Part shown: positions 5,276-63,332 of the stretch, in pieces
How the letters are laid out: every line of letters starts with the position of its first letter
Position numbering within the stretch: position 1 is the stretch's first letter
Assembly: GCA_016219925.1 (NCBI GenBank)
Contig: JACRJU010000012.1
Coordinates: 6,723 to 70,722 of the forward strand
DNA from: Candidatus Uhrbacteria bacterium
GTDB taxonomy: Bacteria > Patescibacteriota > Patescibacteriia > UBA9934 > GWF2-40-263
Length of the DNA: 64,000 bases
Direction of reading: 5' to 3'
Position numbers and translations under genes: made by a program
Notes under the pieces: model-generated
Database searches by the model: none
Seen by the model: the letters and a program-made list of their open reading frames with translations, nothing else
Told to the model about the DNA's origin: nothing

Positions 5276-7947
5276 AGAGGAGGTTCGATCAGCATGGCGA
5301 AAAATTCATCGGTGGTGTTTTGGAGCGTGGCCCGGGTGTCTCCGGTTGAGCTCCAGATATTTTTGAGTGTTTCTGGGAGCGATACGGAAACCGTTGTCGT
5401 TCGATCAAGAATGCCAGATTGTTTTTGGACGAGCAATGAGTACGGTTTGGCCTGCCCGACACGCATGAGTGAACGCAGTCGTTCTCGGAGGCGTCCATCC
5501 GCATCAAAGATTTTGAAAGGAAGACGATAGATGAAGGTTGCTGTCGTCGTCGCTCCCGGAGGTGTTTGAATCCAGTTGCCAAAAACGGTTTTGCCTTGTT
5601 CTTCATAAATATCCGTTCCGGTTTTTTCATCTCGGCTTTTGGTCGCTTGCGCAAATTGCAGATCCGCATCCATCATCCAGTCAGACTCGGGTGTTTCAAA
5701 TAAAGAACCGTCGGGAATACTAAACCCGCTTGAAGAGATCAGCTCGCTTCCTTTGGGAACATAGACGCGCAGATAATCCACATTGTTGACGCCGGTGAAC
5801 ACGAGGCCGGGGATGCCATGATGCGTTCGTTTGAGGGTGACCGTATCGATGACCGTGCCATCCGTCGCGATCTGAACCTGGACGTCCACATGTTCTTCGA
5901 TCACCGCATCTGTTTTACCGCCTCCCAAATTAGTATCGACCACCATCACATAATCACCTGAAGTCGAAGCTATGGCTCCGCTCCAACCGCGCTCCAGCGC
6001 CGCGCGTTGTAACGTATCGTTACTGAAATAAATTTGAATATCTTTTTGCTGAAGCCCTTTGGAAAATTGGTCGATCGCCCCCAAAAATATTTCCGGGTCA
6101 CCTTGTTCGGTGCGTTCAATGAGTTTTGTCGCGAGATCCCCGATGAATTGTTTGGGTTTATTTTCGGTTCGATCGTATTCGAGCTCGACGATTTTTTGCG
6201 CTTCGAACAAAAAGTTTTCCTGATCGATCGTACGGCCGTAGTCGCTCATCTCCACGGGGCCGAGCAGTCCAATGAGATCAGCCACGGCGGTGGCGTTGAT
6301 TGCAATAACCCCGTCTACGCTTGGACCGCCAGCATCGGTATAGAATTCAATCATCTGGCGCGCGCTGGTAGGGAAGTCTGGAAACCAGTTGGCATCTTGA
6401 AATTCCCAGTTGGCTTTCAGCAGTTGCAAAGGTTCAGGAGCCGCGCGCAAGTGGCGCAATTGCCCTTGCAGATCATAGGTTCCTCCGCCGGGGACATTCA
6501 GCTCTTCGATTTGACCGTTCGAAACTTTTATTTCCGCGTAGCTTCCCATGAATCCACCGGTTGCACGCATCTCTGCGTTATTTTGGAAGATAAGCAAATA
6601 TCGCTTCGTTTGATCTCCTCCCAAAATGGTAATAGCCAGATCACTCAATTCATCAAAATTCGCAAGGGTTTTTGAAAGAGGAATGAGGCGATTTTTGAGC
6701 TCCATGAAGGTCTCTTGTTGATCCGTTGGAATCACAGAAGGATCAACCGTATCGATCGCTTCGACGGCTTGTGTGAGATGTGGCGTGATGGTGCGCAGAT
6801 AAGATTGCAAAATGCGAATGCGCGAGACAGGGGTGGGGGACGGCTCATGCGCAAGGGCATCCATCGCTTCGGCAACGCGGCCACCGGCGATGCTTAAATG
6901 TTCTCCGGCCTTAAGGAGGGCTTTGCCTGTGGAAAGGTTTTTTTGTGCGGCAGGAATAACCGAGAGCAGAAGGGAGGTGGTGGCGCCTAAGTCTTGGATG
7001 CCTTGCTGGGCTTTGGCGAACCGATCACTTGCAAGCGAAAAGGCTTGTCCGGCGTCCGTCGCTTGCTGACCAGCCGTTTTGCTTGCGCCTGTTTTAAGAT
7101 ATGCGAATGCTTCTTCAGAGGCGCTTTGCACATCTGTTTTTGCTTGGCGCAGAGTAGAGACCAGGTTCATGGCGTGCAGAGGTAGGACGAAAATAAACGA
7201 GATGAGCACGAACGCACCGATGGGTCGAAGCAAAGTCGCGTTTTGGAAAAACGCAAATACGGACGGTCGCGTTGGAGCTGGAGTGAAGGTTTCTTGCGTG
7301 AGTTCAACCAGCTCGCTTTCTTCTTCCTCTTCTTCGCTGTGATCCTCTTGGGGCAAATCAAAGTACGCAAAAATATCCTCTGGCGTTTGTTTGGGAAAGA
7401 ATGATTCGATGGAAATACGTGTAAGATCCGGGAACGAATGGAACGAAGCAAAGGAAATGGCCTGGGTGTGGCGCGGCGTTGAATGCAAAATGAAACGTTC
7501 GGCTTTGCCCCTGCGAGTCTCTTCGATAAGTTGAGGAAGAACGTCGCTATGGTTAAGGACGAGGGCGTTTTTTTCGACTGGCCGAAGCGGATTTTCACGT
7601 AAGAGCGAGCCGTCTAGGAGATTGAGTCGAATGCGCGTGCGATCTTCTAAGATTTCCTCCGGCGACGGAAGTTCTTGTTTGAGGTTGAGGACAAAAGGAG
7701 AAAGCGGTTGGGCGTTTAGACGCACACGCACCGGTCCGGAATGATCAGACGATCCATAAGTGCGCAACATTTCTGGCACGGCGATATCGTGTTCGCCCAT
7801 GTCTCGTGCCGCTTGTCGGCGTTTGAGCGTACGAGATAAGGCGGCATCCTCCAGTTTTTTTGTCACCGATGCCAACACCACCGACTTTTTTTTTGTCGGT
7901 TTTTTCTTTTGGATTTTTGAAGGGGTGAGTTTTTTACGTGCGGTCAC
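5272..7947 (-). CDS. large membrane-anchored DUF4012-like protein with an N-terminal Lys-rich/poly-Glu extension
   Basis: 891 aa; N-terminal KKKPTKKK and EEEEEESE stretches, one TM (IGAFVLISFIFVLPL), then a conserved region (KRYLLIFQNNAEMRATGGFMGSYAEIKV...) that I recognise from memory as DUF4012; overlaps the next GT4 gene by 14 nt. Confidence 0.55.
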   Translation of the reverse strand: MTARKKLTPSKIQKKKPTKKKSVVLASVTKKLEDAALSRTLKRRQAARDMGEHDIAVPEMLRTYGSSDHSGPVRVRLNAQPLSPFVLNLKQELPSPEEILEDRTRIRLNLLDGSLLRENPLRPVEKNALVLNHSDVLPQLIEETRRGKAERFILHSTPRHTQAISFASFHSFPDLTRISIESFFPKQTPEDIFAYFDLPQEDHSEEEEEESELVELTQETFTPAPTRPSVFAFFQNATLLRPIGAFVLISFIFVLPLHAMNLVSTLRQAKTDVQSASEEAFAYLKTGASKTAGQQATDAGQAFSLASDRFAKAQQGIQDLGATTSLLLSVIPAAQKNLSTGKALLKAGEHLSIAGGRVAEAMDALAHEPSPTPVSRIRILQSYLRTITPHLTQAVEAIDTVDPSVIPTDQQETFMELKNRLIPLSKTLANFDELSDLAITILGGDQTKRYLLIFQNNAEMRATGGFMGSYAEIKVSNGQIEELNVPGGGTYDLQGQLRHLRAAPEPLQLLKANWEFQDANWFPDFPTSARQMIEFYTDAGGPSVDGVIAINATAVADLIGLLGPVEMSDYGRTIDQENFLFEAQKIVELEYDRTENKPKQFIGDLATKLIERTEQGDPEIFLGAIDQFSKGLQQKDIQIYFSNDTLQRAALERGWSGAIASTSGDYVMVVDTNLGGGKTDAVIEEHVDVQVQIATDGTVIDTVTLKRTHHGIPGLVFTGVNNVDYLRVYVPKGSELISSSGFSIPDGSLFETPESDWMMDADLQFAQATKSRDEKTGTDIYEEQGKTVFGNWIQTPPGATTTATFIYRLPFKIFDADGRLRERLRSLMRVGQAKPYSLLVQKQSGILDRTTTVSVSLPETLKNIWSSTGDTRATLQNTTDEFFAMLIEPPL

Positions 7948-11356: not shown

Positions 11357-12802
11357 TTAGTAAACTCCCTTTTCTTTGCGGAAGAGGATAACTAAAGGGG
11401 TTTTAAATAAAATGTAGAAATCGAGCCACGGATTCCAATGTTCGATGTAAAAGGTGTCGAGGCGAACTTCGTCTTCAAAATCCAGATCGGCCCGTCCACT
11501 GATTTGGGCCATGCCGGTGATGCCGGGCTTAACGGTATGAACTTTACGATGCTCGGGGCGATATTTTTCGACTTCTTCTGGGAGATGCGGTCGCGGACCC
11601 ACGAGCGACATCCGTCCAGCAAAGACTAAAAAGAATTCAGGCAGTTCATCAATCGAGTAGGTGCGAATAAATCGCCCCACGCGAGTCACGCGCGGGTCGT
11701 TTTTGATTTTGACCATGGGTGTTCCTTTGCGAATGTCTTGGTTTGCGAGTTCTTTATAGCGCATGAAATGGGTGCCGGGAACCATCGAGCGAAATTTGAA
11801 ATAGCGAAAGGCTTTGCCATTTTGACCGATCCGAACGCTCGGCATATTTTTATCAATTTTGGCGAAGAACACCGGTCCGCGCGAATCAAGTTTGATGGCG
11901 ATCGCGGTCAACAGCATGATCGGACTGGTCAGCACGATCAATAGGAGCGAACCGGCAATATCAAACAGACGTTTATAAATAGCCCCCCATCCATCCAATG
12001 GCGTTTTTTGCACTTCGATAACCGGAACGCCCGCATACGTGTGATGAACAGATCGTCCAACCGCGGCGCCGAATAAATCAGCCGTGAACAGAAATCCAAG
12101 ATGTTCACTTTCGGTTAGACTGATAAGAGCCAGACGCGTCTCACCACTTGCTTCGCTATCGGCAAGGATCACCTCGTCGAGTTTATCCTCTCTGGCCATT
12201 TGGGTGAGTCGTTTACTCAACGCTTTATCAAACGAAGCAAAATGGCCGACCACGCGAAATCCGAAGCGTGCTTTTTTTTTGAAGTCTTCGACAAGTGCAT
12301 CCGCGGTTGCATTTTTTCCAATAACGACAAGACGATGGGTGCCGATGCCGAGCCGCAAAAGGGAACGCTGAAGCCCTCGCACCACAAGACGGGCTACGGA
12401 CACGAAGATCACTGAGAGACCCCATGAAGCGAGCGCGATAAAACGCGACTCAAAGAGTTCACGAGAAAAAAACAAAATACCAAACACCAAAGCCATGGAA
12501 GCAGAACACGCCAACACGACACGCGAAAGTTCAGAGGCGATCCGAGTGCGATGGGCGGCGTAAAGGCCCGAGAACGCAAACACCACAATCCAGATCAGAA
12601 CAAGAGGTGTGGCGATTTTTAAATATTGTTCGTAGGTGAGATCGAAAATGACCGGACGAATCGCGGTGAACGCTGGATGGAAGCGAAGAAAGAACGCCGC
12701 CGAGGCCGCCGCAAGCAATGAAAAAAAATCGAGCGGAACGAGCAGGAGCGTGAAGGCAAGTTCGGAGCGTTTCATAAGGTTTGTGGATCCAATAGGACTC
12801 AT
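11357..12802 (-). CDS. polyprenyl-phosphate sugar-1-phosphate transferase (WbaP/exopolysaccharide priming glycosyltransferase family)
   Basis: Multi-TM N-terminus followed by the bacterial sugar transferase domain (FKFRSM...DELPEFFLVFAGRMSLVGPRP). The ORF-track start at 12937 would run into the RNase P RNA gene, so a start at the Met of MSPIGSTNLM (about 12802) is preferred. Confidence 0.75.
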   Translation of the reverse strand: MSPIGSTNLMKRSELAFTLLLVPLDFFSLLAAASAAFFLRFHPAFTAIRPVIFDLTYEQYLKIATPLVLIWIVVFAFSGLYAAHRTRIASELSRVVLACSASMALVFGILFFSRELFESRFIALASWGLSVIFVSVARLVVRGLQRSLLRLGIGTHRLVVIGKNATADALVEDFKKKARFGFRVVGHFASFDKALSKRLTQMAREDKLDEVILADSEASGETRLALISLTESEHLGFLFTADLFGAAVGRSVHHTYAGVPVIEVQKTPLDGWGAIYKRLFDIAGSLLLIVLTSPIMLLTAIAIKLDSRGPVFFAKIDKNMPSVRIGQNGKAFRYFKFRSMVPGTHFMRYKELANQDIRKGTPMVKIKNDPRVTRVGRFIRTYSIDELPEFFLVFAGRMSLVGPRPHLPEEVEKYRPEHRKVHTVKPGITGMAQISGRADLDFEDEVRLDTFYIEHWNPWLDFYILFKTPLVILFRKEKGVY

Positions 12803-12841
12803 GGTATCAAAAAATTCCGCGTGAGCGAAATTTTTTGATGT

Positions 12842-13301
12842 CCTGGGAGAAGTCTGTAAGCCGAATTTTGTCTTCTGTGGGCGCGAGCCCAGAGGAGATG
12901 GCCATCTCTCTAGCCCGATCATTGCTGACCGGATCAAGACCGGCGAAGCCGGTCATAGCGAGCTACCAAACTTGCTCTTTCACCGAAAAGGGTTTGCCAC
13001 GCCATCGTGTCACCACGAGGCGAGATGCGTGGCACACCGGGCAGGGCCCCGTGCACGCCGCATCACTTTTCACCTTTGATCCGGCCGTGAGGCCGGACTC
13101 GTATTGTCTCTGTGGTACTTTCCCTAGGTTTTGAATCCGGGATCAGGGAATATGAATTGCTCCAATTCCGCGAGCCCTGAATCTTATGCCTGGTCGCCGT
13201 TAGCGACTTTTCGTTTCCTGATGCCTTGCGACACCAGGGGTGTTCGGACTTTCCTCTCCATCCTTTTGATGGATGCAGCGGCCATCCGACTTTCCCAGGA
13301 C
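12842..13301 (-). ncRNA. rnpB: RNase P RNA (rnpB), bacterial type
   Basis: Minus-strand read contains P4 5' strand AGGAAAGTCCGAACAC, J11/12 AAAGGTGAAAAGTG and P4 3' strand CACAGAAGACAAAATTCGGCTTACAG (compare E. coli GGAAAGUCCGGGC / AAGGGUGAAA / ACAGAACCCGGCUUA). P1 pairing CCTGGGAAAGTC...GACTTCTCCCAGG; a perfect promoter lies upstream; A/T stem hairpin plus T-run at the 3' end. Confidence 0.75.
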
Positions 13302-13307
13302 GTGGCG

Positions 13308-13336
13308 ATGATAGCAATTTTTTCTTTAGATGTCAA
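13308..13336 (-). promoter_or_regulatory. sigma70-type promoter of rnpB (TTGACA-17 nt-TATCAT, minus strand)
   Basis: Reverse complement reads TTGACATCTAAAGAAAAAATTGCTATCAT, about 7 nt upstream of the P1 5' end. Confidence 0.6.
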
Positions 13337-13347
13337 TAAAAAAACCG

Positions 13348-13971
13348 TCAGGCAGGCCGACGGGCGAGGGCATCGCGCTGGGTGCGCAGATGGACGAAGT
13401 GGAAGTGTGCCATTACAAGCAGACACACCCCTGAAGAGAGGGAGGAGCGCAGGCTGTAGATTCCCGCGAGCGTGTTGCCATGCACGAACGCCGGGATCAT
13501 GCTTACGACTGAGGCCAACAAGGCGATTCCCCAAGCGGAGAACGATTCAGTGTTTCTGCGTTCCCGCACCATGCGTGTAAACAACGGAATGTAGCCGGCG
13601 GTCATGAGCGCCTGGGAGAAGAGGTTGGACTTCCAAGCGTCCGAGAAGACGACACCGTAGAGAACGATCGCTCCAGACGCGATGAGATACTTCTTCTCAA
13701 ACGGCTGAAGAGTGAATCGACGGGGTCCGGTCAGAGCGACAGCCAGAGTGATTGCGAGCGAGACGGCAACGTCGATGGTGTTGAGGATGCCCGAGAGCAG
13801 ATCGAAATGAGCTTCGATCACATAGCTCACAAAACTGATTGTGTCCCCTGTGGCGAACACAACCCACGTCGAGAGCGTTGGCTCGATCGATCGCGCTCGG
13901 ATTTGGCAGATGTAGCGAACGGCCAAGGCGAGCATAAGAGCCGCCGTGACAATGGCACAGACGGTTTTCAT
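13348..13971 (-). CDS. integral membrane protein (6-7 predicted TM; possibly a PnuC-like nucleoside/vitamin transporter, weak)
   Basis: 207 aa, highly hydrophobic, high-GC codon usage; first gene inside the GC-rich island; a weak hairpin plus T7 overlaps the stop codon (CCGTCGGCCTGCCTGACGGTTTTTTT). Confidence 0.5.
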   Translation of the reverse strand: MKTVCAIVTAALMLALAVRYICQIRARSIEPTLSTWVVFATGDTISFVSYVIEAHFDLLSGILNTIDVAVSLAITLAVALTGPRRFTLQPFEKKYLIASGAIVLYGVVFSDAWKSNLFSQALMTAGYIPLFTRMVRERRNTESFSAWGIALLASVVSMIPAFVHGNTLAGIYSLRSSLSSGVCLLVMAHFHFVHLRTQRDALARRPA

Positions 13972-13986
13972 GCAAACCTCCTTCGT

Positions 13987-14082
13987 TCAGGGCATGAGGA
14001 TTTTGACCAATCCGGGGATGGTCGGCAGGTAGGCCAGGACGATCGTAATGATAGCCCACGTACGCATCTCGGCGTTGCTCAT
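13987..14082 (-). CDS. 31-aa hydrophobic micro-ORF (MSNAEMRTWAIITIVLAYLPTIPGLVKILMP)
   Basis: ATG...TGA, 15 nt upstream of the membrane-protein gene whose RBS (GGAGG) follows it; single predicted TM; hand-translated and not in the ORF track. Confidence 0.3.
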   Translation of the reverse strand: MSNAEMRTWAIITIVLAYLPTIPGLVKILMP

Positions 14083-14169
14083 AATAGCTTTCTTTTCTGC
14101 GAGTGAATGTGCAAGACGACGAATGAATAGCTTACGCTTTGTTGGGTGTCTGTCAAGGAAAATTTTGTG

Positions 14170-14199
14170 AAAATAAAAAGGCCGAGTCTGTGGCTCGGC
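14170..14199 (-). terminator. rho-independent terminator after deoB
   Basis: Minus strand GCCGAGccacagaCTCGGC followed by CTTTTTATTTT; the hairpin overlaps the TAG stop. Confidence 0.5.
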
Positions 14200-15428
14200 T
14201 AGGCGGCGATGTGGACGATGGCGTCGCGTTGAGTGTCTGCGCAGTTAAAGTGCTGCGCGACGAGCAGACCCACCTCCGTGAGCCCTTCGCCCGTTCCCGT
14301 CTGGAGGGGAAACTGACGGTTCCCCACAGTGCAAGCCAATAGTGGCACCGGCTCGCGGTTGTGGTAGCCGTAGTCGTCGCGGTGCTCCATGCCGTGATCG
14401 GCTGTGATCAGGAGCAGATCGTCCGTGGCGAGCTCCGCCTCAATCATCGGCAGGACGCGGTCGAACTCTTCGAGACAACGCAGAGCGCCCTCGATGTCGC
14501 GCGTGTGGCCGTAGAGACTGTCGGTGTCGACGCAGTTGGCGAAGATGAAGGTTCCCCGCGCAGATGTGGTGCGCGTGTGGCGGACGGCGCGCACGATGCC
14601 GTCGATTGTGAAGGGGTTGGTGTCCTTCTGCTTGGGATGCACGAAGCGCAGGTCGAGCTTCGGATCCAGCAGGCTCGGATCCGCGAGATGATACTCGAGA
14701 TCGTAGTCGGTGTTGACCAGATCGCTGGGCTTACCGACAGAGATCACATGGATGCCGGCGTGGCGCAGGACGTCCACGAGAGTGGGTCCCGGCAGGGCGA
14801 GCACGGCGTCGTGGCGGTTGGCCGTGCGGATGTATTCGCCTTCAGGCGTCTGCACGAAGGCGCGGGCGATCGCCCGTGTGATCGGGATCCCCATCTCGAT
14901 GGCGACCTGCAGGGCGAGATCCGCGATTCGGTGTTGCTCGTTGATCTGGATCACAGCTTCGTCCATCGCGAACTGGATGAGGGGATCACACTTGCTTGCG
15001 TAGACGATTGGCCGTCCGGTGCGAGCGTGCTCCGCGGCGTTGGTTTCGATTACCTCGACCCCACCGCCCATTTGGTTGAACAGAGTCTCGCGCCCGGTGC
15101 GACGCTCGAGCTCCGCGATGTAGCGAGTGTCGAATCCGTTGGGGAAGAGCTTGTAGGTCCGACCATCCACGATGCCGCACATCTCGCGATGTCCGATGAC
15201 GGAATCGGGGGAGGCCGAGGCTTGGTCGAGGCGTACGGCGTGTGCACCGGGTTGCGGGTCGGGGCCAAGAACGAGGCGCGAATGGACGTTCGGATTCAGC
15301 AGAGTGCGCAGGCCCAGCCGGGTCAGGTTGGGGAGAGCGGTTGGCTTCTTGGAGCGATCGAGCAAGTACTCAAGGGTCGTGACCCCCAAAGCATCCAGGA
15401 CGATGAGTACGGCGATGCGCGCGGACAT
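14199..15428 (-). CDS. deoB: phosphopentomutase
   Basis: 409 aa; alkaline-phosphatase-superfamily motifs including LITADHGM; full-length similarity to DeoB as recalled; GAAAAGGAG RBS; about 65% GC. Confidence 0.85.
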   Translation of the reverse strand: MSARIAVLIVLDALGVTTLEYLLDRSKKPTALPNLTRLGLRTLLNPNVHSRLVLGPDPQPGAHAVRLDQASASPDSVIGHREMCGIVDGRTYKLFPNGFDTRYIAELERRTGRETLFNQMGGGVEVIETNAAEHARTGRPIVYASKCDPLIQFAMDEAVIQINEQHRIADLALQVAIEMGIPITRAIARAFVQTPEGEYIRTANRHDAVLALPGPTLVDVLRHAGIHVISVGKPSDLVNTDYDLEYHLADPSLLDPKLDLRFVHPKQKDTNPFTIDGIVRAVRHTRTTSARGTFIFANCVDTDSLYGHTRDIEGALRCLEEFDRVLPMIEAELATDDLLLITADHGMEHRDDYGYHNREPVPLLACTVGNRQFPLQTGTGEGLTEVGLLVAQHFNCADTQRDAIVHIAA

Positions 15429-15480
15429 GGGACTCCTTTTCTAAGAGCAGAGAACTCTTAGTGACACGGAGCTTACGGGA

Positions 15481-15516
15481 AAAGAAAAATCCCGTCCACT
15501 CTTGCGAGCAGACGGG
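15481..15516 (-). terminator. rho-independent terminator after the aldehyde dehydrogenase gene
   Basis: Minus strand CCCGTCtgctcgcaagagtgGACGGG followed by ATTTTTCTTTT. Confidence 0.45.
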
Positions 15517-15533
15517 TTGGAAGAAGAGGAGCA

Positions 15534-17909
15534 TCAGGCACCGAAGGGCACCCAGATGGCCTTGGGGTGGGTCGCCTCCGCCAGGGCCCGGGCGGAGAGG
15601 ATCGATGGGTCCAGCCAGTTGAGTCGACGGCCGTCTGACACCCACGTGCGCTTGAGGTTGCCGATTGAGACTTCCTCGATGCGCCGACTGGTGTCGGGAT
15701 CGTATCCGAAGTACCAGAACGATCCGACCTCATCGTAATTGCCTGCGAGCATGACCGCGGCCTCGTCGGGCGCTTCGGGCGTGAGGATGTTGACCACGCC
15801 GCCGGGCAGGTCCGAACTCTGCGCGATCGGCACAAGGTCGAGCGCACTGATGGGCCTGGTGCCCGCGAGCATCACGACCGTGTTGCCCTGGGCGATGGCC
15901 TGTGCCATGGGAGCGACCATTCCGAGCAGAGGAAGCTCGTCGGTCGCCCGCACGCCGATCACCCCGATCGGTTCGCTCAAGGTCGTGACCAGCATCGGGC
16001 CGCACACTCGGCTGACCGTGCCGGCGTTGCGATCCGCATAGGCTGCGTTCCAGAACAGCGCCTCGACCGAGGCGTCGAACTCCTGGCGCGCCTGCTCGAA
16101 CGAGATGCCCGTCTGGGCGCGCAGGCGCTCGATGATGTCGAGCCGCTGGTCGGTGAGGTTCTCCGCGAAGAACCGCAGGATCTGCGCCCGGTTGTGGCCG
16201 GTCTTGCCGCGCCAGCCCAGGAAGGCCTTGGCGGCCGCCTCGACCGCACTGCGCAGATCCTTGCGGTTGACGTGTCCCACGTTGCCGAGGAACACCCCGC
16301 CGGGGCCGTTGATGCGGTAGCTGCGGTCTCCGTCGGGGCGCTTGAGCGCGCCGCCGATGAGGTTCCGTCGGGTGCGGTGAAGCGTGAGCCCCACCACGGG
16401 CTCGGGCACACGATCCTCCGGCTCGGGCACACGCGGTTCCACCGGGGGCTGGTCGACCTCTGTGAGGTACGCGAGCATGCCCCGGTCTCCGCCTTCGGAA
16501 CCCCAGCCACTCTCGCGACGGCCTCCGAACTCGACGGCGGCATCGAACTGGTTGGTGCAGTTGATCCACACCGTGCCAGCTTCGATCCGGGAGGCGATGT
16601 CGAAGGCCACGTCCATGGTCTGCGACCACACGCTGGCGGCCAGGCCGTAGCGCGTGTTGTTGGCCAGCTCCACAGCCTCACCGACCTCGCGGAACGTCAT
16701 GATGACGAGCACGGGGCCGAAGATCTCCTCGCGCGCGATCGTGTGCGCGGGCGAGACGTTGGTGAACAGAGTCGGGGGGATGAACAGGCCGCACTGGCAG
16801 GACTCGAGCAGGCACGAATCGGGCTGCCACTTGGTGGCCCCTTCCTGCTCGCCCAGAGCGATCAGGCCCGTGACCTTGTCGAACTGCGCGCGCGAGTTCA
16901 TCGCGCCGATGTCCACGGTTTTGTCGAGCGGATGACCCACTCGCAGACGCGACATCCGCCGCTTGAGCTTCGCGAGGAAGCGTTCGACGACGCTCTCCTG
17001 GACGATCGCGCGCGATCCGGCGCAACACACCTCCCCCTTGTTGAAGAAGATGGCGTCGATGATGCCCTCGACTGCAGCGTCCAGATCGGCATCCTCGCAC
17101 ACGATGAAGGGCGACTTGCCGCCGGCCTCCAGCGTGAGAGCTTTGCCCGATCCGGCCGTGGCCGTTCGGATCTTGCAGGCAACCGCGGTTGAGCCGGTGA
17201 AGGCCACTTTGGCGATGCCCGGGTGGCGCACGAGTGCGTCTCCGGTCGAGCCATCACCGTTGACGATGTTGACGACGCCCTTTGGCAAGCCGATCTCCAT
17301 CAGGATCTCGGCGAACCGCATGGCGGTCAGCGGCGTGGAGTCCGCCGTCTTGATGACGACGGTGTTGCCGGTCGCGAGCGCGACCGCGACCTTCCAGGCG
17401 AGCATCAGGAACGGGAAGTTCCAGGGGATCACCTGGCCGACGACTCCGCGCGGCTTGTGGTTGGGATGGTCCACGCCGAGGGTCTGGGCCCTTCCGGCGT
17501 GGTGTTCGAAGTGTCGGACGACCAGCGGGACGTCCGCGTCGCGGGCTTCCCGGATGGCCTTGCCGTTGTCGAGAGTCTCGAGCACGGCGAAGAGCCGGGC
17601 GTTCTCACGGATCGCGCGGGCGATCGCGTAGAGGTGCAGGGCGCGCTCGAATCCCGAGAGTTGGCTCCAGGTCTTGAACGCCTCGCTGGCGCTCGCGACC
17701 GCGGCGTCGACATCCGCCTGGGTTCCCCGGGGGATGCTCGCCAGCCGTTCGCCCGTGGCCGGGTTGATGACCTCGATCCGATCGGTTGTCCCGGACGGGG
17801 TCTGGAACACTCCGTTGATGAAGTGATCGAAGGTGTCGTTGTGCGAAGCGAGCCAGTGCAGAGCAGACCCTGCGTCCTCGTGATCGCTCGTATAGACAGC
17901 CGTGGTCAT
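15534..17909 (-). CDS. aldehyde dehydrogenase family protein with a second, degenerate ALDH-like C-terminal domain (791 aa)
   Basis: The N-terminal ~480 aa carry canonical ALDH motifs (VIPWNFPFLM, KTADSTPLTA, EAGGKSP, GEVCCAGSR, EEIFGPV). Residues ~500-791 again resemble an ALDH NAD-binding/catalytic region but lack the catalytic Cys context. The start overlaps the deoC stop by 11 nt. Confidence 0.7.
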   Translation of the reverse strand: MTTAVYTSDHEDAGSALHWLASHNDTFDHFINGVFQTPSGTTDRIEVINPATGERLASIPRGTQADVDAAVASASEAFKTWSQLSGFERALHLYAIARAIRENARLFAVLETLDNGKAIREARDADVPLVVRHFEHHAGRAQTLGVDHPNHKPRGVVGQVIPWNFPFLMLAWKVAVALATGNTVVIKTADSTPLTAMRFAEILMEIGLPKGVVNIVNGDGSTGDALVRHPGIAKVAFTGSTAVACKIRTATAGSGKALTLEAGGKSPFIVCEDADLDAAVEGIIDAIFFNKGEVCCAGSRAIVQESVVERFLAKLKRRMSRLRVGHPLDKTVDIGAMNSRAQFDKVTGLIALGEQEGATKWQPDSCLLESCQCGLFIPPTLFTNVSPAHTIAREEIFGPVLVIMTFREVGEAVELANNTRYGLAASVWSQTMDVAFDIASRIEAGTVWINCTNQFDAAVEFGGRRESGWGSEGGDRGMLAYLTEVDQPPVEPRVPEPEDRVPEPVVGLTLHRTRRNLIGGALKRPDGDRSYRINGPGGVFLGNVGHVNRKDLRSAVEAAAKAFLGWRGKTGHNRAQILRFFAENLTDQRLDIIERLRAQTGISFEQARQEFDASVEALFWNAAYADRNAGTVSRVCGPMLVTTLSEPIGVIGVRATDELPLLGMVAPMAQAIAQGNTVVMLAGTRPISALDLVPIAQSSDLPGGVVNILTPEAPDEAAVMLAGNYDEVGSFWYFGYDPDTSRRIEEVSIGNLKRTWVSDGRRLNWLDPSILSARALAEATHPKAIWVPFGA

Positions 17910-17918
17910 GGAATCCTC

Positions 17919-18884
17919 CTAGGCGATCGCCAGGTAGTGGCCGGCCGGGTAGCGCCCGAACGCGGCGTGGTGCAGTTGGCGCTCCAGGTCTCCCAGAAGT
18001 GAGCTGGCTCCGATCCGGAACCGCTCCGGCTTCGTCCAGTCCTCTCCGAGCTGTTCGTGCATGAGCGCCATCCAGGCCTGGGCCTCCTTGGCCGTCTTGA
18101 TGCCGCCGGCGGGCTTGAAGCCCACGGGGTGGCTCGGATCGATCTCGAGGAAGCGCAAGATCTGGTCGGTCATGACCAGACCGATCGGCAAGGTAGCGTT
18201 GGTTGCTTCCTTCCCAGTCGAGGTCTTGATGACATCGGCTCCGGCCAGGATGGCCGTGGCCGAGGCTTTCGCGATCCGTTCGAGCCTGACCAGGTTGCCC
18301 GTTCCCAGGATCACCTTGAGCTTGGCGCGATCGCCACAGGCCCTGCGGAAGCCGGCGATCTGGTCGTAGAGCGCCTTCCAGTTGCTCTGAAGCGCGAGGG
18401 CGCGGCTGATGACCACGTCGATCTCGGCCGCACCGGCGTTGATCGAAGCCTCGATCTCTTGAGGCTTGAGTTCCTCAGGGCCTTGCCCGTCGGGGAAGAA
18501 CGTCGAGACCGCCGCGACCGGGACCCCGGTTTTTTCCAGACAGGCCACGGCCTCGGCGACCTGCGCGTGGTACACGCACACGGCGCCGACGGTGAACGGC
18601 TCGATCCCGAGTTTCTCGAGGATGTCCGGTCGGACCGGACGCTTGGCCTTCTGGCAAAGCCGATCGACTCGTCCGGGAGTGTCACTCCCATCCAGAGTGG
18701 TCAGGTCGATGCACTGGATGGCATCGACGTGGGCGCGCACTTGCGAACCCCTCTTGATTGGCCGGCGCGCGACGAGCGATTGCGCTCGCTGTTCGACGCC
18801 TCTTCGGTTGACGTGGATCGACTCGATCAGGCCCAAGTCGAAGGCCAAAGTCTCACGCATGACTCCTCCGTAGGAAATTCCCAA
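17919..18884 (-). CDS. deoC: deoxyribose-phosphate aldolase (long form)
   Basis: 321 aa; class I aldolase TIM-barrel motifs (AAVSTFFPDGQG, Schiff-base Lys region VIKTSTGK); GGAGG RBS; high GC. Confidence 0.8.
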   Translation of the reverse strand: MGISYGGVMRETLAFDLGLIESIHVNRRGVEQRAQSLVARRPIKRGSQVRAHVDAIQCIDLTTLDGSDTPGRVDRLCQKAKRPVRPDILEKLGIEPFTVGAVCVYHAQVAEAVACLEKTGVPVAAVSTFFPDGQGPEELKPQEIEASINAGAAEIDVVISRALALQSNWKALYDQIAGFRRACGDRAKLKVILGTGNLVRLERIAKASATAILAGADVIKTSTGKEATNATLPIGLVMTDQILRFLEIDPSHPVGFKPAGGIKTAKEAQAWMALMHEQLGEDWTKPERFRIGASSLLGDLERQLHHAAFGRYPAGHYLAIA

Positions 18885-18908
18885 TCCATGGGGGATAGGG
18901 ATGGACTT

Positions 18909-18937
18909 TATATACAGGTGAAGGCGGCAATCGTCAA
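18909..18937 (-). promoter_or_regulatory. sigma70-type promoter upstream of deoC (TTGACG-17-TATATA, minus strand)
   Basis: Reverse complement reads TTGACGATTGCCGCCTTCACCTGTATATA, about 25-30 nt upstream of the deoC RBS. Confidence 0.5.
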
Positions 18938-18943
18938 GATATT

Positions 18944-18980
18944 GACCGAAAAACCAAAAGAGACCTCATGGGTCTCTTTT
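18944..18980 (-). terminator. rho-independent terminator after trpS
   Basis: Perfect 9-bp inverted repeat AAAGAGACC-catga-GGTCTCTTT directly after the trpS TAG stop, followed on the minus strand by TTTTGGTTTTTCGG. Confidence 0.6.
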
Positions 18981-18982
18981 GA

Positions 18983-19972
18983 CTAGGAGAGTTTTACGCC
19001 GATCGCTTCGCGAACTTGTTGCATTTTTTTCTCGGCGATCGCTTGCGCCTTTTGCGCGCCGGCCTCCAGTATTTCGATCAGATTTTTGTGATCTTTCAAG
19101 GAATCGTGAATGCGTTGTTGGAGCGGTTGGAGAAATTGATTGATCTGTTCGATCAGGTCTTGCTTAAACTGCGCATAGCCTTTTCCTTCAAATGCCGCCT
19201 CGATTTGTGCCATGGTTTTCCCGCTGACGAGTTCGTAGATCGTCATCAGGTTTGACACCCCAAGCCGTCCCGGACGATTGACGATCGTGCCTTCGGCATC
19301 TGTCATAGCGGCTTTGATTTTTTTCTCGACTGTTTTTTCGTCATCCATGAGCGAGAGGAAATTTTTATCGCTTGCGGCAGACTTGGACATCTTGCTTGTT
19401 GGATCATCCAGGGCCATCACGCGCGCGCCTTCTTTTCGGATATGCGGTTTTGGAATCACAAACGTTTCTCCAAACCGGTTGTTGAATCGCTCGGCAATAT
19501 CGCGCGCCAGTTCGACGTGCTGTTTTTGATCTTCACCCACCGGCACGATGTTCGTGTCATACAGAAGAATGTCCGCAGCCATGAGCACGGGGTAATCGAA
19601 CAATCCAACCGTGACCGATTCTCCTTTGTTGCGGGTTTTATCTTTGAATTGCGTCATCCGTTCAAGTTCACCCATATGGGTGAGACAATTCAAAATCCAT
19701 GCAAGCTCGGTGTGCGCGCTCACGCGCGACTGTTGGAAGAGAAGCGTTTTGTTTGGATCGACTCCGGCGGCCAGATACGTTGCGGCGGCAAAGAGAATAT
19801 TTTGTCGGAGCTGTTTGGGATCCTGGGGCACGGTGATCGCGTGGTAATCAACAATAAACAAAAAATTGGTGTTGCCGTCATCTTGCAATTTCACAAAGGG
19901 TTCGATCGCTCCAAAGTAGTTGCCGATATGGAGCACGCCGGAGGGTTGCAGAGCGGTGAGGATGTTTGCCAT
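18983..19972 (-). CDS. trpS: tryptophan--tRNA ligase
   Basis: Class I aaRS; start taken at MANILTALQPSGVLHIGNY (HIGH-type motif), KMSKS present (SKMSKSAASD). The ORF-track start at 20071 would overlap the upstream terminator hairpin and is probably too long. Confidence 0.85.
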   Translation of the reverse strand: MANILTALQPSGVLHIGNYFGAIEPFVKLQDDGNTNFLFIVDYHAITVPQDPKQLRQNILFAAATYLAAGVDPNKTLLFQQSRVSAHTELAWILNCLTHMGELERMTQFKDKTRNKGESVTVGLFDYPVLMAADILLYDTNIVPVGEDQKQHVELARDIAERFNNRFGETFVIPKPHIRKEGARVMALDDPTSKMSKSAASDKNFLSLMDDEKTVEKKIKAAMTDAEGTIVNRPGRLGVSNLMTIYELVSGKTMAQIEAAFEGKGYAQFKQDLIEQINQFLQPLQQRIHDSLKDHKNLIEILEAGAQKAQAIAEKKMQQVREAIGVKLS

Positions 19973-19999
19973 ACGGGGGTATGGTAGCAAAGCACACGG

Positions 20000-20038
20000 G
20001 AAATGAAAAATCACCCTTCGACAAGCGTCGGGTGATTT
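20000..20038 (-). terminator. terminator/attenuator-like hairpin between rnj and trpS
   Basis: 8-bp stem AATCACCC / GGGTGATT with a 13-nt loop and a T-run on the minus strand (TTTTTCATTT). It lies 22 nt after the rnj stop and about 28 nt before the trpS start, so it may give only partial termination or act as a leader. Confidence 0.4.
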
Positions 20039-20060
20039 TATCGTTCGAATGGGGCGGCTG

Positions 20061-21848
20061 TTACACTTCAATAATCACGGGAAGAATCATGGGGCGTCGT
20101 TCGATTTTTTTAAACAGGAACGCGCCGATCTTGTCGCGAATTTGTTCGCGGGCGTATTTGGGGTCTGCTTCGGATTTGGGATCGTGATCTTCAAGCACTT
20201 TGCGCACCTCTTGGCGCGTCTGATCGATCAGTTCACGATGCTCTTTCATAAAGATGAAACCGCGGCTGATAATGTCGGGAACGCCGACCAGTTTGCCGGT
20301 TTTCTTTTCAATCTGAACAATGACAACGACCATGCCGTCCTCCGCGAGCACTTTGCGATCGCGCAGAACGACTTGGGAAACATCACCCACCCCGAGTCCA
20401 TCCACGAACACATACTCGGTCGGAACTTTTTCTTTAGTGAGAGCACCATTGTCTTTCCAAAACTCCATGATCTGTCCGTTATCCACGACGAATACCTGTT
20501 CCTCCTGCCATCCCATCGAATAGGCCACGTCTGCGTTTTCGCGCAAAAGAAAATGGTTGCCTTCGATCGGGACGTAGTATTTTGGTTTGAACAAAGCGAG
20601 CATCAACTTGATGTCTTCTTTTTTTCCATGGCCGCCAGCGTGCACATCCATCATCGTATAGTTGATGACCTTACAGCCTTTGCGGTAGAGCGTATCCATC
20701 AGGCGCTGGACCGACGATTCGTTGCCAGGAATGACGGACGAAGAAAAGATCACAGTGTCGGTTTTGCGCACGCGCACACTGCGGTGCTCGTTGTTAGCGA
20801 TGCGATTAAGCGCGGCTTGCTTTTCCCCTTGGGCGCCGGTGCAGATAAGCACGACTTTTTCGTCCGGGTATCCATCCATCTGTTCGGGCTTGATGAGTGT
20901 GGACTGGGAGCATTTGATAAAGCCGATCTCTTTGGCGATCTCGACGTTGGTTTTCATTGAGTAGCCGTCGATCGCGACTTTCTTGCCGAGTTTTTCGGAC
21001 GCCTCGATGATTTGTTTGACGCGAGAGAGCAGGGAAGCGAAAGTGCCGATGATCACACGCCCTTTTGCTTTTTCAATGATATATTCCAGCTCTTCACCGA
21101 TCACCTTTTCTGAAACTTGGTGGCCTTCGCGGTTGGCGTTTGTGGAATCGCCCATGAGGCACAGGACGCCTTTCTTGCCGATCTCGGCGATTTTTTGGAA
21201 GTCCGCGCGCTCTTCACCGGATGGATGAAAGTCAAACTTCCAGTCGCCAGTATGGCAAATGGTTCCCACCGGCGTTTCCACCACGATACCAACCGAATCG
21301 GGAATGTTGTGGTTGATGTGCACGAAAGAAACCGTGAAAGCGCCGAGTTTGAGAATGTCGTCTACCTTTGTGACTTTCACCTCGAGCTTGCGCGTGTGGA
21401 AATCCTCCTGGCGGCGTTTGATGATGGCCGCGGAGACCGGCAGAGCATAAATCGGCGGATTACCAATGAAAGGTACCGTGTGGGGAATCGCGCCGATGTG
21501 ATCGTAGTGGCCGTGGGTGATGATCACCCCGCGAATATCTTTTTCGCGACCTTTGAGATACGACATGTTCGGGATAATGTAATCCACGCCCGGCATGTCT
21601 TCTTCAGGGAACTGGAGCCCCATGTCTATGAGAATGATGTCGTTTTTGTACTCGAGCAGAGTACAGTTGCGGCCAACTTCCTCACATCCACCGAGAACGA
21701 TGATGCGAAGTTTGTCGCCGCTAGGGGCTTTGATGGTCTGGGTCTGCGCCAACGGTTTGGCGCGAAACACGCGACCCTTGAAACGGTTTCCGCCGCGTGA
21801 ATGACGCGCGGAGGAGTTCCGTCCCGTTGCGGGTTGTTTAGGGGACAT
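20061..21848 (-). CDS. rnj: ribonuclease J (metallo-beta-lactamase/beta-CASP RNase)
   Basis: HxHxDH motif (ITHGHYDHIGAIP), beta-CASP and C-terminal domains; start chosen at MSPKQP (the ORF track gives 21890). Confidence 0.8.
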   Translation of the reverse strand: MSPKQPATGRNSSARHSRGGNRFKGRVFRAKPLAQTQTIKAPSGDKLRIIVLGGCEEVGRNCTLLEYKNDIILIDMGLQFPEEDMPGVDYIIPNMSYLKGREKDIRGVIITHGHYDHIGAIPHTVPFIGNPPIYALPVSAAIIKRRQEDFHTRKLEVKVTKVDDILKLGAFTVSFVHINHNIPDSVGIVVETPVGTICHTGDWKFDFHPSGEERADFQKIAEIGKKGVLCLMGDSTNANREGHQVSEKVIGEELEYIIEKAKGRVIIGTFASLLSRVKQIIEASEKLGKKVAIDGYSMKTNVEIAKEIGFIKCSQSTLIKPEQMDGYPDEKVVLICTGAQGEKQAALNRIANNEHRSVRVRKTDTVIFSSSVIPGNESSVQRLMDTLYRKGCKVINYTMMDVHAGGHGKKEDIKLMLALFKPKYYVPIEGNHFLLRENADVAYSMGWQEEQVFVVDNGQIMEFWKDNGALTKEKVPTEYVFVDGLGVGDVSQVVLRDRKVLAEDGMVVVIVQIEKKTGKLVGVPDIISRGFIFMKEHRELIDQTRQEVRKVLEDHDPKSEADPKYAREQIRDKIGAFLFKKIERRPMILPVIIEV

Positions 21849-22071
21849 AAAATAAAAAATGGTTATTAAATTAAGAGAACCGATGTTCAATTGTGAAAGA
21901 ACCTTCTCTCCTTATATTGATGGCGTGATCTTTTTGAGATGCGTGGGGCGCACACAGCCGGAAAAGATCGCGGGATTGTTCAGATCGATACCTGTCTTCG
22001 GGCCAACGGACTCGTCGCGCCGTTGTTCCCTCCGGCAGATGTCGATCTGATATTACTGTATGAAGAGAGAT

Positions 22072-38890: not shown

Positions 38891-39772
38891 TCAGTTTCTG
38901 GATTTGAAAAGCCGAAACAGTCGAAGAAGTCTATTTTGCAAGAGATACCACTGATGCTTGAACGCGTGCTGTTTCAGGACACGGAGGATTTTTTTGTTGT
39001 TTTCCTTTTCGAATGTCGTCTGTGTTCCAGGAATCGCAAGAACACTGATTCCACGATCTGTGATAGTTAATGTCGTAACGACAAAATGGGCCTTGCCTAG
39101 GAGTCCAACGATAGTTTTCGGGGTAAACATCATCAAATGGATGCTGGAAAAATAATCCGTGACGGCTCTATCTGCACGCATACCGAAAATATTTGGAACC
39201 TCCAGGAACAAGACCCCTTTTTTGTTCAACCGTGCATGGATGTTTTGTAAAAAGTTTAGCGGATCAGGTACATGCTCCAATATGTGGAGCGCAACAATCA
39301 AATCAAATTTTTCATGATGAAAGGTTCGCTCGCTGAAAAATCCAGTTTGTATATTTAATCCAAAGTAGTCGCGGCTATATTTGGAAAATGGAACAGAAGG
39401 TTCGATACCGAAAACATTCCATCCACATTTTTTGAGTTCATTGAGAAAAATTCCGGATGAGCTTCCTATTTCGAGAGCGTTTTCCCCCTCACCTTCTCCG
39501 TAATTTTTTTTTAGCCAAACGATTTTCGATTGTGCGTCCTCTCTTGATACTCTGAAATACTTTTCTGATGTACTAGTTTCAAATTCGCCTTCAACATAGA
39601 AGCGTTTTAATGCTTCACCATCGGGTTGAGGATTTTGAAACGTAAATCCGCATTCTCTGCAAAGGACATATTGAATTTTTGGGCAAGATAATTTTTTGAT
39701 ATATCGGTCTTTTCCATGTCTCAGGAGTACTTGATAGTTTCCAGAATCACAGATGGGACAATTCATATACAT
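38891..39772 (-). CDS. N-terminal zinc-ribbon + class I SAM-dependent methyltransferase (TylC3-like architecture: putative sugar C-/O-methyltransferase), paralog C
   Basis: CPICDSG...CRECGF zinc ribbon then the SAM motif LEIGSSSGIFL and acidic motif II. Confidence 0.65.
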   Translation of the reverse strand: MYMNCPICDSGNYQVLLRHGKDRYIKKLSCPKIQYVLCRECGFTFQNPQPDGEALKRFYVEGEFETSTSEKYFRVSREDAQSKIVWLKKNYGEGEGENALEIGSSSGIFLNELKKCGWNVFGIEPSVPFSKYSRDYFGLNIQTGFFSERTFHHEKFDLIVALHILEHVPDPLNFLQNIHARLNKKGVLFLEVPNIFGMRADRAVTDYFSSIHLMMFTPKTIVGLLGKAHFVVTTLTITDRGISVLAIPGTQTTFEKENNKKILRVLKQHAFKHQWYLLQNRLLRLFRLFKSRN

Positions 39773-52430: not shown

Positions 52431-53038
52431 ACTTTCTCCGCCACGATCTTCATCATCATCGTTTTATCATGGTGCGGAAAGTCATACTCCTGTTCCAGGA
52501 TATGAGTGAACCCTACATCCTGTAGAAGTAATTTGTATCTTTCAAAATCAACAATGCACAAGTGTATATCATATTCATCCTTGAGTGCGCCATGGAGATA
52601 CCGAAGAACCATATCGTCACAGCCGTTGATGTGGTAGTAGGAAACTATTTTTTTAAGTGACGGGATTCCTAGTTCAACTATTCCATGTGTTTTTAACACG
52701 CGATTGAACTCCCCTAATATTTTTTTTGAATCGACGATATTAAAATGCTCTAAGGTTGCAATAGAGACGATGTTATCGATTGATTCTGTTTCAAAAGGAA
52801 GGGGGTTGTGAAGATTGGTTACAACATCAACGGTTGGATAGTCCAGGATATCGACATTGAGATATTTCGGATTCAGGGGATGTTTTCCCCCACAAATTTC
52901 AAGAACTTTTTTTTCTTCATTTTGAAACATCCTAAGTTTATAGGTACGTTTCAAGCGAACAACGTTTCGGCTAATTGGATTCTTGGAGGCAAGGATAGAG
53001 AGAAGACTCTTTTTTAGGACTGTGAAGAATTTTTTCAT
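52427..53038 (-). CDS. class I SAM-dependent methyltransferase (Methyltransf_11/23-like)
   Basis: 203 aa; VLEICGG SAM motif, acidic motif II, VSIATLEH motif. Confidence 0.6.
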   Translation of the reverse strand: MKKFFTVLKKSLLSILASKNPISRNVVRLKRTYKLRMFQNEEKKVLEICGGKHPLNPKYLNVDILDYPTVDVVTNLHNPLPFETESIDNIVSIATLEHFNIVDSKKILGEFNRVLKTHGIVELGIPSLKKIVSYYHINGCDDMVLRYLHGALKDEYDIHLCIVDFERYKLLLQDVGFTHILEQEYDFPHHDKTMMMKIVAEKV

Positions 53039-63325: not shown

Positions 63326-63332
63326 ACGAATT

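Follow-up and report, generated by a model that had tools for sequence, protein, structure and literature searches.

Genomic islands and horizontal gene transfer (HGT) have been documented as common in the Patescibacteria, or candidate phyla radiation (CPR) (PMC12455944, Gios et al. 2025). Here, we analyze a guanine-plus-cytosine (GC)-rich block of three metabolic genes, deoC, an aldehyde dehydrogenase (ALDH) gene, and a deoB-like gene for a phosphopentomutase-like enzyme, in a 64,000-nucleotide (nt) stretch of a Candidatus Uhrbacteria metagenome-assembled genome (MAG); this stretch is called the window, and all coordinates are positions within it. The block resembles the islands described in the Patescibacteria (PMC12455944) in its atypical composition, its metabolic genes, and its absence from a relative, but it contains no integrase, att site, or phage gene, is fixed at one site in diverged lineages, and has not ameliorated in composition; deoC, ALDH, and phosphopentomutase are not mentioned in that paper. 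Judged by the classical criteria for an island at a stable-RNA gene, the block deviates in composition and has an empty counterpart site, whereas a mobility gene, att repeats, and insertion at the 3′ end of a stable-RNA gene were not found. The best explanation, which we consider probable, is that the block is a fixed, old 4.8-kb insertion carrying a composite module for deoxyribose catabolism, that it did not come from an actinobacterium, and that its high GC content has been maintained.

The enzymes of the module also have described counterparts. Like the deo regulon of Escherichia coli and Bacillus (deoC, deoA/pdp, deoB/drm, and deoD), the module joins DERA with a phosphopentomutase-like enzyme and follows the same pathway logic. 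It differs from the regulon in that neither the gene cluster nor the window includes a nucleoside phosphorylase gene, DeoC is of the long form (313 aa), an ALDH16 gene sits between deoC and deoB, and the mutase belongs to a divergent subfamily that scores under the DeoB cutoffs. The ALDH has the same two-part architecture and Asn/Glu/Cys triad as LsALDH16 of Loktanella (PDB 6MVR), to which it is ~50% identical, and falls on a Patescibacteria branch. LsALDH16 was assayed with hexanal (Liu and Tanner 2019, as cited in PMC8160307 and PMC12041015), and the function of ALDH16 in vertebrates is described as unknown (PMC12041015).

A GC-rich block between trpS and a membrane protein gene

The mean GC content of the window is 50.3%, and a 1-kb profile stays between 40 and 55% except at 13 to 19 kb, where it reaches 56 to 68%. 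A 200-nt profile resolves this rise into a sharp plateau of 60 to 72% from ~14200 to ~18890, with 1-kb flanks of 49 to 53% and a fall to 49% at 18800-18999. An earlier note on this DNA had described a GC island of 62 to 73% spanning 13348 to 18884 between flanks of 45 to 48%; the plateau itself is confirmed, but the left 850 bp (13348-14199) do not reach such values, with 55 to 58% over the open reading frame (ORF) of the membrane protein (13300-13999) and 48% in the spacer at 14000-14199, and the flanks measure ~50%. Overall, the GC content of the module is 0.651 versus 0.490 in the remaining window. GC content at third codon positions (GC3) is 0.80 in the deoB-like gene, 0.87 in the ALDH gene, and 0.83 in deoC, compared with 0.537 ± 0.048 (range, 0.41 to 0.64) in 40 other ORFs of the window, giving z values of 5.5 to 7.0; the membrane protein gene is intermediate (0.71; z = 3.6). 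The preponderance of G/C-ending codons that the note had reported is borne out, since the shift spans every codon family (module versus host: AAG, 0.87 versus 0.26; GAG, 0.75 versus 0.34; TTC, 0.96 versus 0.44; ATC, 0.99 versus 0.58), and the module proteins are enriched in Ala, Gly, and Arg. Codon usage of the host (the same 40 ORFs) is itself not a simple GC effect: A endings are favored for Lys, Glu, and Gln (0.64 to 0.74), C is the commonest ending in most four-fold families, and GC content at the four-fold sites of conserved residues is 0.69 to 0.75.

All three genes are on the minus strand, and the GC profile, the empty site described below, and direct reading of the sequence give the inserted block a revised extent of 14160..18948 (~4.8 kb). 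Its right edge lies just downstream of the trpS terminator, read directly as a hairpin (AAAAGAGACC...GGTCTCTTTT plus a T run; 18949..18981, minus strand), and its left edge lies just upstream of a TTGACA promoter that belongs to the membrane protein gene. The right boundary is thus where it had been placed before, but the left one is at ~14160 and not beside the rnpB promoter. A sigma-70-like promoter upstream of deoC that had been proposed at 18909..18937 (minus strand) can be read there as TTGACG-17-TATATA, below the stringency of our promoter scan. The ORF list gives deoC as 17919-18884; its start is most likely the ATG at 18860, preceded at 5 nt by GGAGG and yielding the 313 aa seen in relatives (17919..18860, minus strand), with the TTG at 18884 less likely. 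The 791-aa ALDH gene (15534..17909, minus strand) is followed by a strong terminator-like hairpin with an 11-bp stem and a T run (15491..15516, minus strand), which divides deoC-ALDH from the deoB-like gene (14199..15428, minus strand), and a further terminator-like hairpin stands at the deoB-like stop codon (14181..14199, minus strand); the earlier note had reported two internal terminators. deoC and ALDH read as one promoter-to-terminator unit, with the deoB-like gene and the membrane protein gene each apparently served by a terminator of its own. No att-like direct repeats bracket the block, around which only short, imperfect repeats at chance level were found, and no integrase, recombinase, or mobility gene occurs among its three metabolic genes.

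Gene order in relatives and an empty site

The three closest ALDH homologs (74%, 74%, and 66% identity) are all in loci syntenic with the window (L001 to L007). These come from Hainich groundwater assemblies (L001-L004; ERZ12926xx), from SRR25508628/GCA_040960175.1 (L005 and L006), and from SRR22388139 (L007), and they have in common the order RNase J-trpS-deoC-ALDH-(deoB)-small membrane gene, followed in four loci by rnpB and then a sugar transferase gene. rnpB holds the same position in L001, L002, L003, and L006, as well as in the empty-site locus L178, and in L001 the synteny reaches further, as in the window, to tRNA-Leu, SBP_bac_5, and DsbA. The GC step is also present in the relatives, with a GC content of 0.45 to 0.50 in the flanks and 0.58 to 0.69 in the module and a GC3 of 0.47 to 0.59 in the flanks and 0.70 to 0.89 in the module. 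Six contigs or more, drawn from three or more unrelated sample sets and made with different assemblers, show both junctions; since identical junctions occur in independent samples and assemblies, a chimeric join is ruled out for practical purposes. The signals at the junctions are coherent too: at one, the deoC promoter comes after the trpS terminator, and at the other, the membrane gene promoter comes after the deoB terminator.

One relative carries the surrounding genes without the module. Loci L178 to L180 have the order HicA-trpS-membrane gene-PIN-rnpB-Bac_transf-GT4-GT4-GT4-DUF4012 and lack deoC, ALDH, and deoB; apart from the extra PIN gene, L178 matches the window from trpS to DUF4012, with 69 to 71% identity in trpS and 74% in Bac_transf. 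This empty site defines the variable block as ~14160-18948, and it makes both rnpB and the membrane gene, which the earlier note had counted as a transporter within the island, part of the native flank. The comparison with a related genome lacking the block, which that note had called for, is therefore available and is compatible with either gain or loss. L178 (1-12086) has an overall GC content of 57% and a gene GC3 of mostly 0.50 to 0.82, whereas the island-bearing relatives have 47 to 50% GC; its PIN-domain gene lies between the membrane gene and rnpB, and its HicA toxin gene lies upstream of trpS.

The Hainich lineage (L001-L003) has peculiarities of its own. Its membrane gene directly follows deoC-ALDH, the phosphopentomutase-like gene being missing. 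In L001 (6181-7367), trpS matches in two pieces (80% for residues 25-193 and 63% for residues 177-361) and only a 157-aa gene is called there, a break that may reflect a frameshift, a pseudogene, or a junction rearrangement. The ALDH of this lineage is labeled "Planctomycetota bacterium" at NCBI, though the contigs show Uhrbacteria-type synteny; the "Planctomycetota" contigs are probably misbinned. L002 also contains a 259-aa ORF by the sugar transferase gene (7164-7943) with no Pfam match on record and a GC3 of 0.91 in a genome of ~48% GC; tblastn found no counterpart at that position in the window, and the ORF could represent a second insertion of GC-rich DNA in this lineage.

Age of the insertion and persistence of its high GC content

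Amino acid identity between the relatives and the window is 74 to 77% for deoC, 66 to 75% for ALDH, and 66 to 70% for deoB, and in the flanks it is 73 to 76% for trpS, 72% for Bac_transf, and 86 to 89% for RNase J. The module has diverged along with its flanks, which places it before the split of these lineages. As judged from these comparisons, the insertion is old: it predates the divergence, to ~66 to 77% protein identity, of at least four sampled lineages. Synonymous sites are nearly saturated. At four-fold degenerate sites of conserved residues, identity is 0.36 to 0.55 where composition alone predicts 0.31 to 0.41, and where both lineages have G or C, the base is identical at a frequency of 0.62 to 0.69 versus 0.51 expected; the GC/AT state of these sites is barely correlated between lineages (phi, 0.06 to 0.20, and 0.03 against a Magasanikbacteria copy). 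We also observed that trpS of L005 and L007 is 85% identical, whereas their module genes are only 66 to 73% identical and no closer than other pairs, which hints at differing histories of flank and module in these two loci and at recombination in the region.

Despite this turnover, GC content at the four-fold sites of conserved residues (GC4) is 0.76 to 0.86 in the island and 0.53 to 0.75 in the flanks. A two-state model predicts that, as each lineage relaxes to its equilibrium composition, the between-lineage correlation of GC/AT state falls off twice as fast, so a phi of ~0.1 to 0.2 means that only ~0.3 to 0.45 of the compositional excess at the split should remain. The excess at four-fold sites is 0.10 to 0.16 in the window, 0.26 in L007, and 0.18 to 0.25 in L005, and under this simple model most of these values would need an ancestral GC4 above 1. 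As a control, the locus is compared with its counterparts in a cross-phylum sample of 160 loci among the matches listed in ALDH scans; those matches were to generic ALDH motifs and included no close relatives. The GC content of the deoC-ALDH16 pair minus that of its flanks is -0.03 to +0.08 in ~95 sampled loci of other phyla, +0.09 to +0.15 in the Uhrbacteria clade, +0.13 in Magasanikbacteria, and ~+0.05 in two other Patescibacteria.

With moderate confidence, we read the GC content of the module as maintained and not as a relic. Candidate forces are selection on GC content or on codon or mRNA properties and GC-biased gene conversion at a recombining accessory locus; selection, biased gene conversion, and repeated influx are not separable with these data. 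Translational or expression-linked codon selection was considered as a source of the high GC3 and is unlikely, as the module uses AAG, GAG, and CAG where the host prefers AAA, GAA, and CAA; it is also disfavored by the GC3 of L19 in the window (0.58) and of S2, S15, and EF-Ts in L009 (0.50 to 0.57). We tentatively suggest, at somewhat under even confidence, that this is a "non-ameliorating" island, with a GC3 ~0.2 to 0.35 above its surroundings in at least four Uhrbacteria lineages and, at a different site, in Magasanikbacteria, and with a locus-specific compositional equilibrium that would hold for one operon of a streamlined CPR genome despite synonymous turnover.

Enzymes of the module and a putative deoxyribose pathway

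The gene assignments of the earlier note for deoC, ALDH, and a phosphopentomutase-like enzyme hold. The deoC product matches TIGR00126 at 134.3 bits, above the equivalog cutoff of 117.3, and aligns to E. coli DERA (1JCL; E = 3e-39) with the EIDVV, IKTSTGK, and GFKPAGG motifs kept; in the E. coli enzyme, the Schiff-base lysine and its partners are D102, K167, and K201. The deoB-like protein (PF01676) aligns to PDB phosphopentomutases, including that of Bacillus cereus (PPM; E = 1.8e-47), and keeps D-[S/T]-x-x-G-H-x-E and TADHG...H-x-RE-VPLL, the motifs of a putative alkaline-phosphatase-type metal site and nucleophile. It has Ser in place of the Thr nucleophile of PPM.

The ALDH contains two PF00171 stretches, corresponding to a catalytic ALDH domain and a C-terminal pseudo-Rossmann domain, and it matches PDB 6MVR (767 aa) end to end (query 6-791, chain 13-767; E = 3.8e-211). 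N164, E261, and C295 are invariant in the alignment of the window ALDH with its relatives, which points to the active bacterial type and not the vertebrate pseudoenzyme. The structure 6MVR is that of Loktanella ALDH16, whose triad is Asn165/Glu261/Cys295 (PMC12041015); this enzyme is described as an active dimer whose extra C-terminal Rossmann-like domain does not bind nucleotide (Liu and Tanner 2019, as cited in PMC12041015 and PMC8160307).

From these assignments, the module likely serves the catabolism of deoxyribose phosphate. A phosphorylase encoded elsewhere would make deoxyribose-1-phosphate from scavenged deoxynucleosides, the mutase would turn this into deoxyribose-5-phosphate, and DeoC would cleave the latter to glyceraldehyde-3-phosphate, which would enter lower glycolysis, and acetaldehyde; ALDH16 would then oxidize the acetaldehyde to acetate, giving NAD(P)H. 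Acetaldehyde derived from DERA may be the natural substrate of bacterial ALDH16 in general, because the ALDH16 gene directly follows deoC in most of the ~100 sampled loci. Our literature search found no paper linking ALDH16 with deoC, the three co-mentions concerning, by title and abstract, proteomics or vector purification.

Origin of the module

A long-form deoC gene lies directly upstream of a ~790-aa ALDH16-type gene in ~85 to 90% of the ~100 sampled loci with enough flanking sequence, which cover more than 10 phyla and one Poseidoniales archaeal bin; Alphaproteobacteria, Gammaproteobacteria, Acidobacteriota, Gemmatimonadota, Chloroflexota, Bacteroidota, Verrucomicrobiota, Myxococcota, and Actinomycetota are all represented. 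The window deoC is 49 to 56% identical to the copies of Gemmatimonadota, Acidobacteriota, Alphaproteobacteria, and Chloroflexota and 35 to 45% identical to those of Actinomycetota (Streptomyces, Kitasatospora, Nonomuraea, and Acidimicrobiia), and in the C-terminal domain of ALDH, identity is ~26 to 40% for actinobacterial sequences versus 42% in other phyla. In a neighbor-joining tree of 57 ALDH16 sequences (corrected p-distances), the four syntenic lineages group together with 100% bootstrap support, and L008 (a Patescibacteria contig from Hainich) and L009 (from Magasanikbacteria) join them with 95% support. The main cluster of other phyla is the sister of this Patescibacteria group, and the deepest branch, outside these, is made up of one Verrucomicrobiota (Akkermansiaceae) and two Bacteroidota sequences. 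Among 5.8 billion proteins, no ALDH match above 74% identity was found outside the syntenic clade.

Other Patescibacteria carry deoC-ALDH(-deoB) in unrelated contexts. In the Magasanikbacteria genome GCA_016207245.1 (L009, 8986-13839), the deoC-ALDH16-deoB-like module is likewise a GC island (+0.13) and lies between a CYTH gene and an AI-2E transporter gene near rpsB-tsf; only a 289-aa deoB-like product is called there, the full 399 aa being present in L010. Among the sampled loci, the deoB-like gene adjoins the deoC-ALDH pair in Patescibacteria only. Its family splits from two canonical DeoB sequences with 100% bootstrap support, and its nearest named relatives outside the clade (52 to 61% identity) are almost all from Elusimicrobia, in one of which the gene stands alone in a 68% GC genome with a GC3 of 0.95. 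The deoC-ALDH16 pair would thus be the Patescibacteria form of a two-gene cassette that is widespread among phyla; a deoB-like gene, from a separate subfamily common to high-GC Elusimicrobia, would have been joined to it within the Patescibacteria. On these trees and identities, the module appears composite, a recent actinobacterial donor is unsupported, and no specific donor can be named.

Alternative explanations

The earlier note had offered two accounts, a horizontally acquired island from a high-GC actinobacterium or a chimeric assembly join. A chimeric join or a misbinned high-GC fragment in a 50% GC contig would fit the abrupt GC steps at both ends and the metagenome-assembled source; with the junctions, gene order, and GC step recurring in independent assemblies of different samples and with coherent signals at the junctions, we regard it as virtually discounted. 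Recent transfer with a high-GC actinobacterium as the donor and rnpB as the integration site, in the manner of a classical genomic island, accords with the high GC content and the GC-rich codons, and Actinobacteria do carry deoC beside an ALDH16-like gene (L071-L085). Their deoC and ALDH C-terminal homologs are the more distant ones, however, and a homolog search, which had been expected to return Actinomycetota as top matches, instead returned as the closest ALDH homologs the syntenic loci with the same GC step; the ALDH groups with Patescibacteria, no match above 74% lies beyond the syntenic clade, and the island is as diverged as its flanks, which speaks against recent acquisition. Nor was rnpB the integration hot spot: the insert sits between the trpS terminator and the membrane gene promoter, rnpB is 0.85 kb from the insertion point, past a native gene and with its 5′ side toward the block, and there is no att site or integrase. 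This account is very improbable.

Two other accounts concern the history of the module within the Patescibacteria. If it descended vertically from the ancestor of the Uhrbacteria family and disappeared from the L178 lineage, with its high GC3 a gene-specific equilibrium under selection, then the similar divergences of island and flanks, the monophyly of Patescibacteria ALDH16 sequences, and a GC3 that is stationary despite synonymous turnover would all follow; the native membrane gene also has a high GC3 (0.69 to 0.82) in every lineage, including that with the empty site, and genome GC content in the family varies from 47 to 50% up to 57%. However, the differing genomic contexts in Magasanikbacteria and other Patescibacteria indicate mobility on a longer timescale, the relatives of the deoB-like gene are of the Elusimicrobia type, and the codon shift opposes the host preference for AAA, GAA, and CAA and is not shared by L19, S2, S15, or EF-Ts, so that we consider vertical inheritance unlikely. 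Alternatively, homologous recombination through the conserved flanks may have repeatedly reintroduced the module or exchanged it among related Uhrbacteria, its GC content being upheld by influx from relatives of higher GC content, by GC-biased gene conversion, or by both. The disagreement between trpS and module genes in L005 and L007 (85% versus 66 to 73%), the 57% GC relative, the GC enrichment of the adjacent native membrane gene, and the reported frequency of HGT among Patescibacteria (PMC12455944) are compatible with exchange. Near-identical island copies were not seen between lineages, however, and the conflict between trpS and module rests on a single flank gene. We judge exchange to be rather improbable; to our knowledge, a GC3 excess of ~+0.3 far exceeds the effects attributed to biased gene conversion in bacteria.

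Several points also weigh against our preferred explanation, that of an old, fixed, composite insertion with maintained GC content. The trpS distances are star-like (window, L178, and L005 plus L007), which fits gain and loss alike, and the empty site could equally represent a loss. The searches yielded no donor nearer than ~55% identity, and a foreign origin for deoC-ALDH16 is therefore argued from composition and the empty site. The trees are neighbor-joining trees in which fast-evolving CPR sequences could cluster artifactually, and the deoB-like tree has bootstraps of 2 to 26%, too low to show nesting of the Patescibacteria sequences within Elusimicrobia or a direction of transfer. The saturation argument applies simple two-state reasoning to a few hundred sites and presupposes that the process is homogeneous. 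On the functional side, the deoB-like protein scores under the NCBIfam equivalog cutoffs (PRK05362, 229 versus 256; TIGR01696, 200.5 versus 341), so its substrate is one that we infer, and no nucleoside phosphorylase is encoded within the 64-kb window, where the entry step of the pathway is unseen.

Significance

An old syntenic insertion is a known kind of feature; the persistence of GC content through saturating synonymous divergence is the sole unexplained property. For annotation, the locus illustrates that a sharp GC step in a CPR MAG can be real, old, and syntenic and need not reflect a binning error or a recent transfer, and that a guess at the donor from GC content alone misleads here. 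If the GC content is indeed maintained, the locus would be a clean natural test case for the ability of selection or biased gene conversion to hold one operon at a base composition of its own. The pairing of deoC with ALDH16 suggests a physiological substrate for the latter, and the module might offer some Uhrbacteria and Magasanikbacteria a compact way to obtain carbon for glycolysis, together with reducing power, from deoxyribose in scavenged DNA.

The neighboring membrane protein and other features of the window

The membrane gene at the left edge (13348..13971, minus strand; a terminator-like hairpin overlaps its stop codon at 13345..13363, minus strand) encodes a 207-aa protein with no Pfam match. 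Its family has 23 members, none named and one labeled Patescibacteria, and none of the 23 matches the MtN3_slv or PQ-loop Pfam families at E ≤ 1 among the top 25 families listed. The AlphaFold model (pLDDT, 95.9) has seven helices arranged 3+1+3, and the top Foldseek matches are cystinosin, AtSWEET13, and the KDEL receptor (probability, 1.0; TM score, 0.55 to 0.63). This confident model predicts a SWEET/PQ-loop-type fold, and a transporter role is plausible. The predicted 3+1+3-helix arrangement is what the protein shares with SWEET, PQ-loop, and KDEL-receptor transporters; it differs from them in its low identity (12 to 14%), in lacking a Pfam match, and in belonging to a family restricted so far to Patescibacteria-like contigs.

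The distribution of this family agrees with the empty site in marking the gene as a native Patescibacteria flank gene and not island cargo. Distant members occur, at ordinary GC content, in housekeeping contexts (PPDK/sigma-70/DnaG in L094 and ThrRS/GyrB/DnaE in L096), a closer one (59% identity) is present at the empty site of L178-L180, and the gene adjoins deo genes only in this Uhrbacteria clade. Its GC3 is raised in all the island-bearing lineages and in the empty-site lineage. A 31-codon hydrophobic ORF 5′ of the gene (14081-13986, minus strand) has no counterpart in the relatives searched and is probably spurious.

Beyond the membrane gene, rnpB for a bacterial type A RNase P RNA (12840..13297, minus strand; Rfam RF00010, 149.6 bits) is a native neighbor whose promoter, TTGACA-17-TATCAT with an extended -10 TG (13308..13336, minus strand; 11/12 matches), is the one recognized in the earlier note. 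The RNA is 458 nt long in the window (430 to 500 nt in relatives; in L178, 3853-4352) versus 367 positions in the Rfam model, which indicates sizeable insertions. The sugar transferase gene (Bac_transf) is at 11357-12937 (minus strand). On the other side of the block, trpS (18983..20071, minus strand; TIGR00233, 342 bits) is a native flank gene whose real start is probably the ATG at 19975, and RNase J is encoded at 20061-21890 (minus strand).

Elsewhere, the gene content of the window is typical of the CPR (RuvA, FemAB, DUF4012, T4SS-pilin-like, UvrA, L19, and Cmk), along with many GT4 glycosyltransferases and a large glycan cluster. Within the polysaccharide cluster, three stretches are low in GC content (38891-39772, 51294-54808, and 61298-64000; 38 to 45% GC and a GC3 of 0.38 to 0.45); the genes in them specify methyltransferases, GT4 glycosyltransferases, and a Wzy-type O-antigen ligase, and the stretches may be cassettes of the cluster that were exchanged separately.

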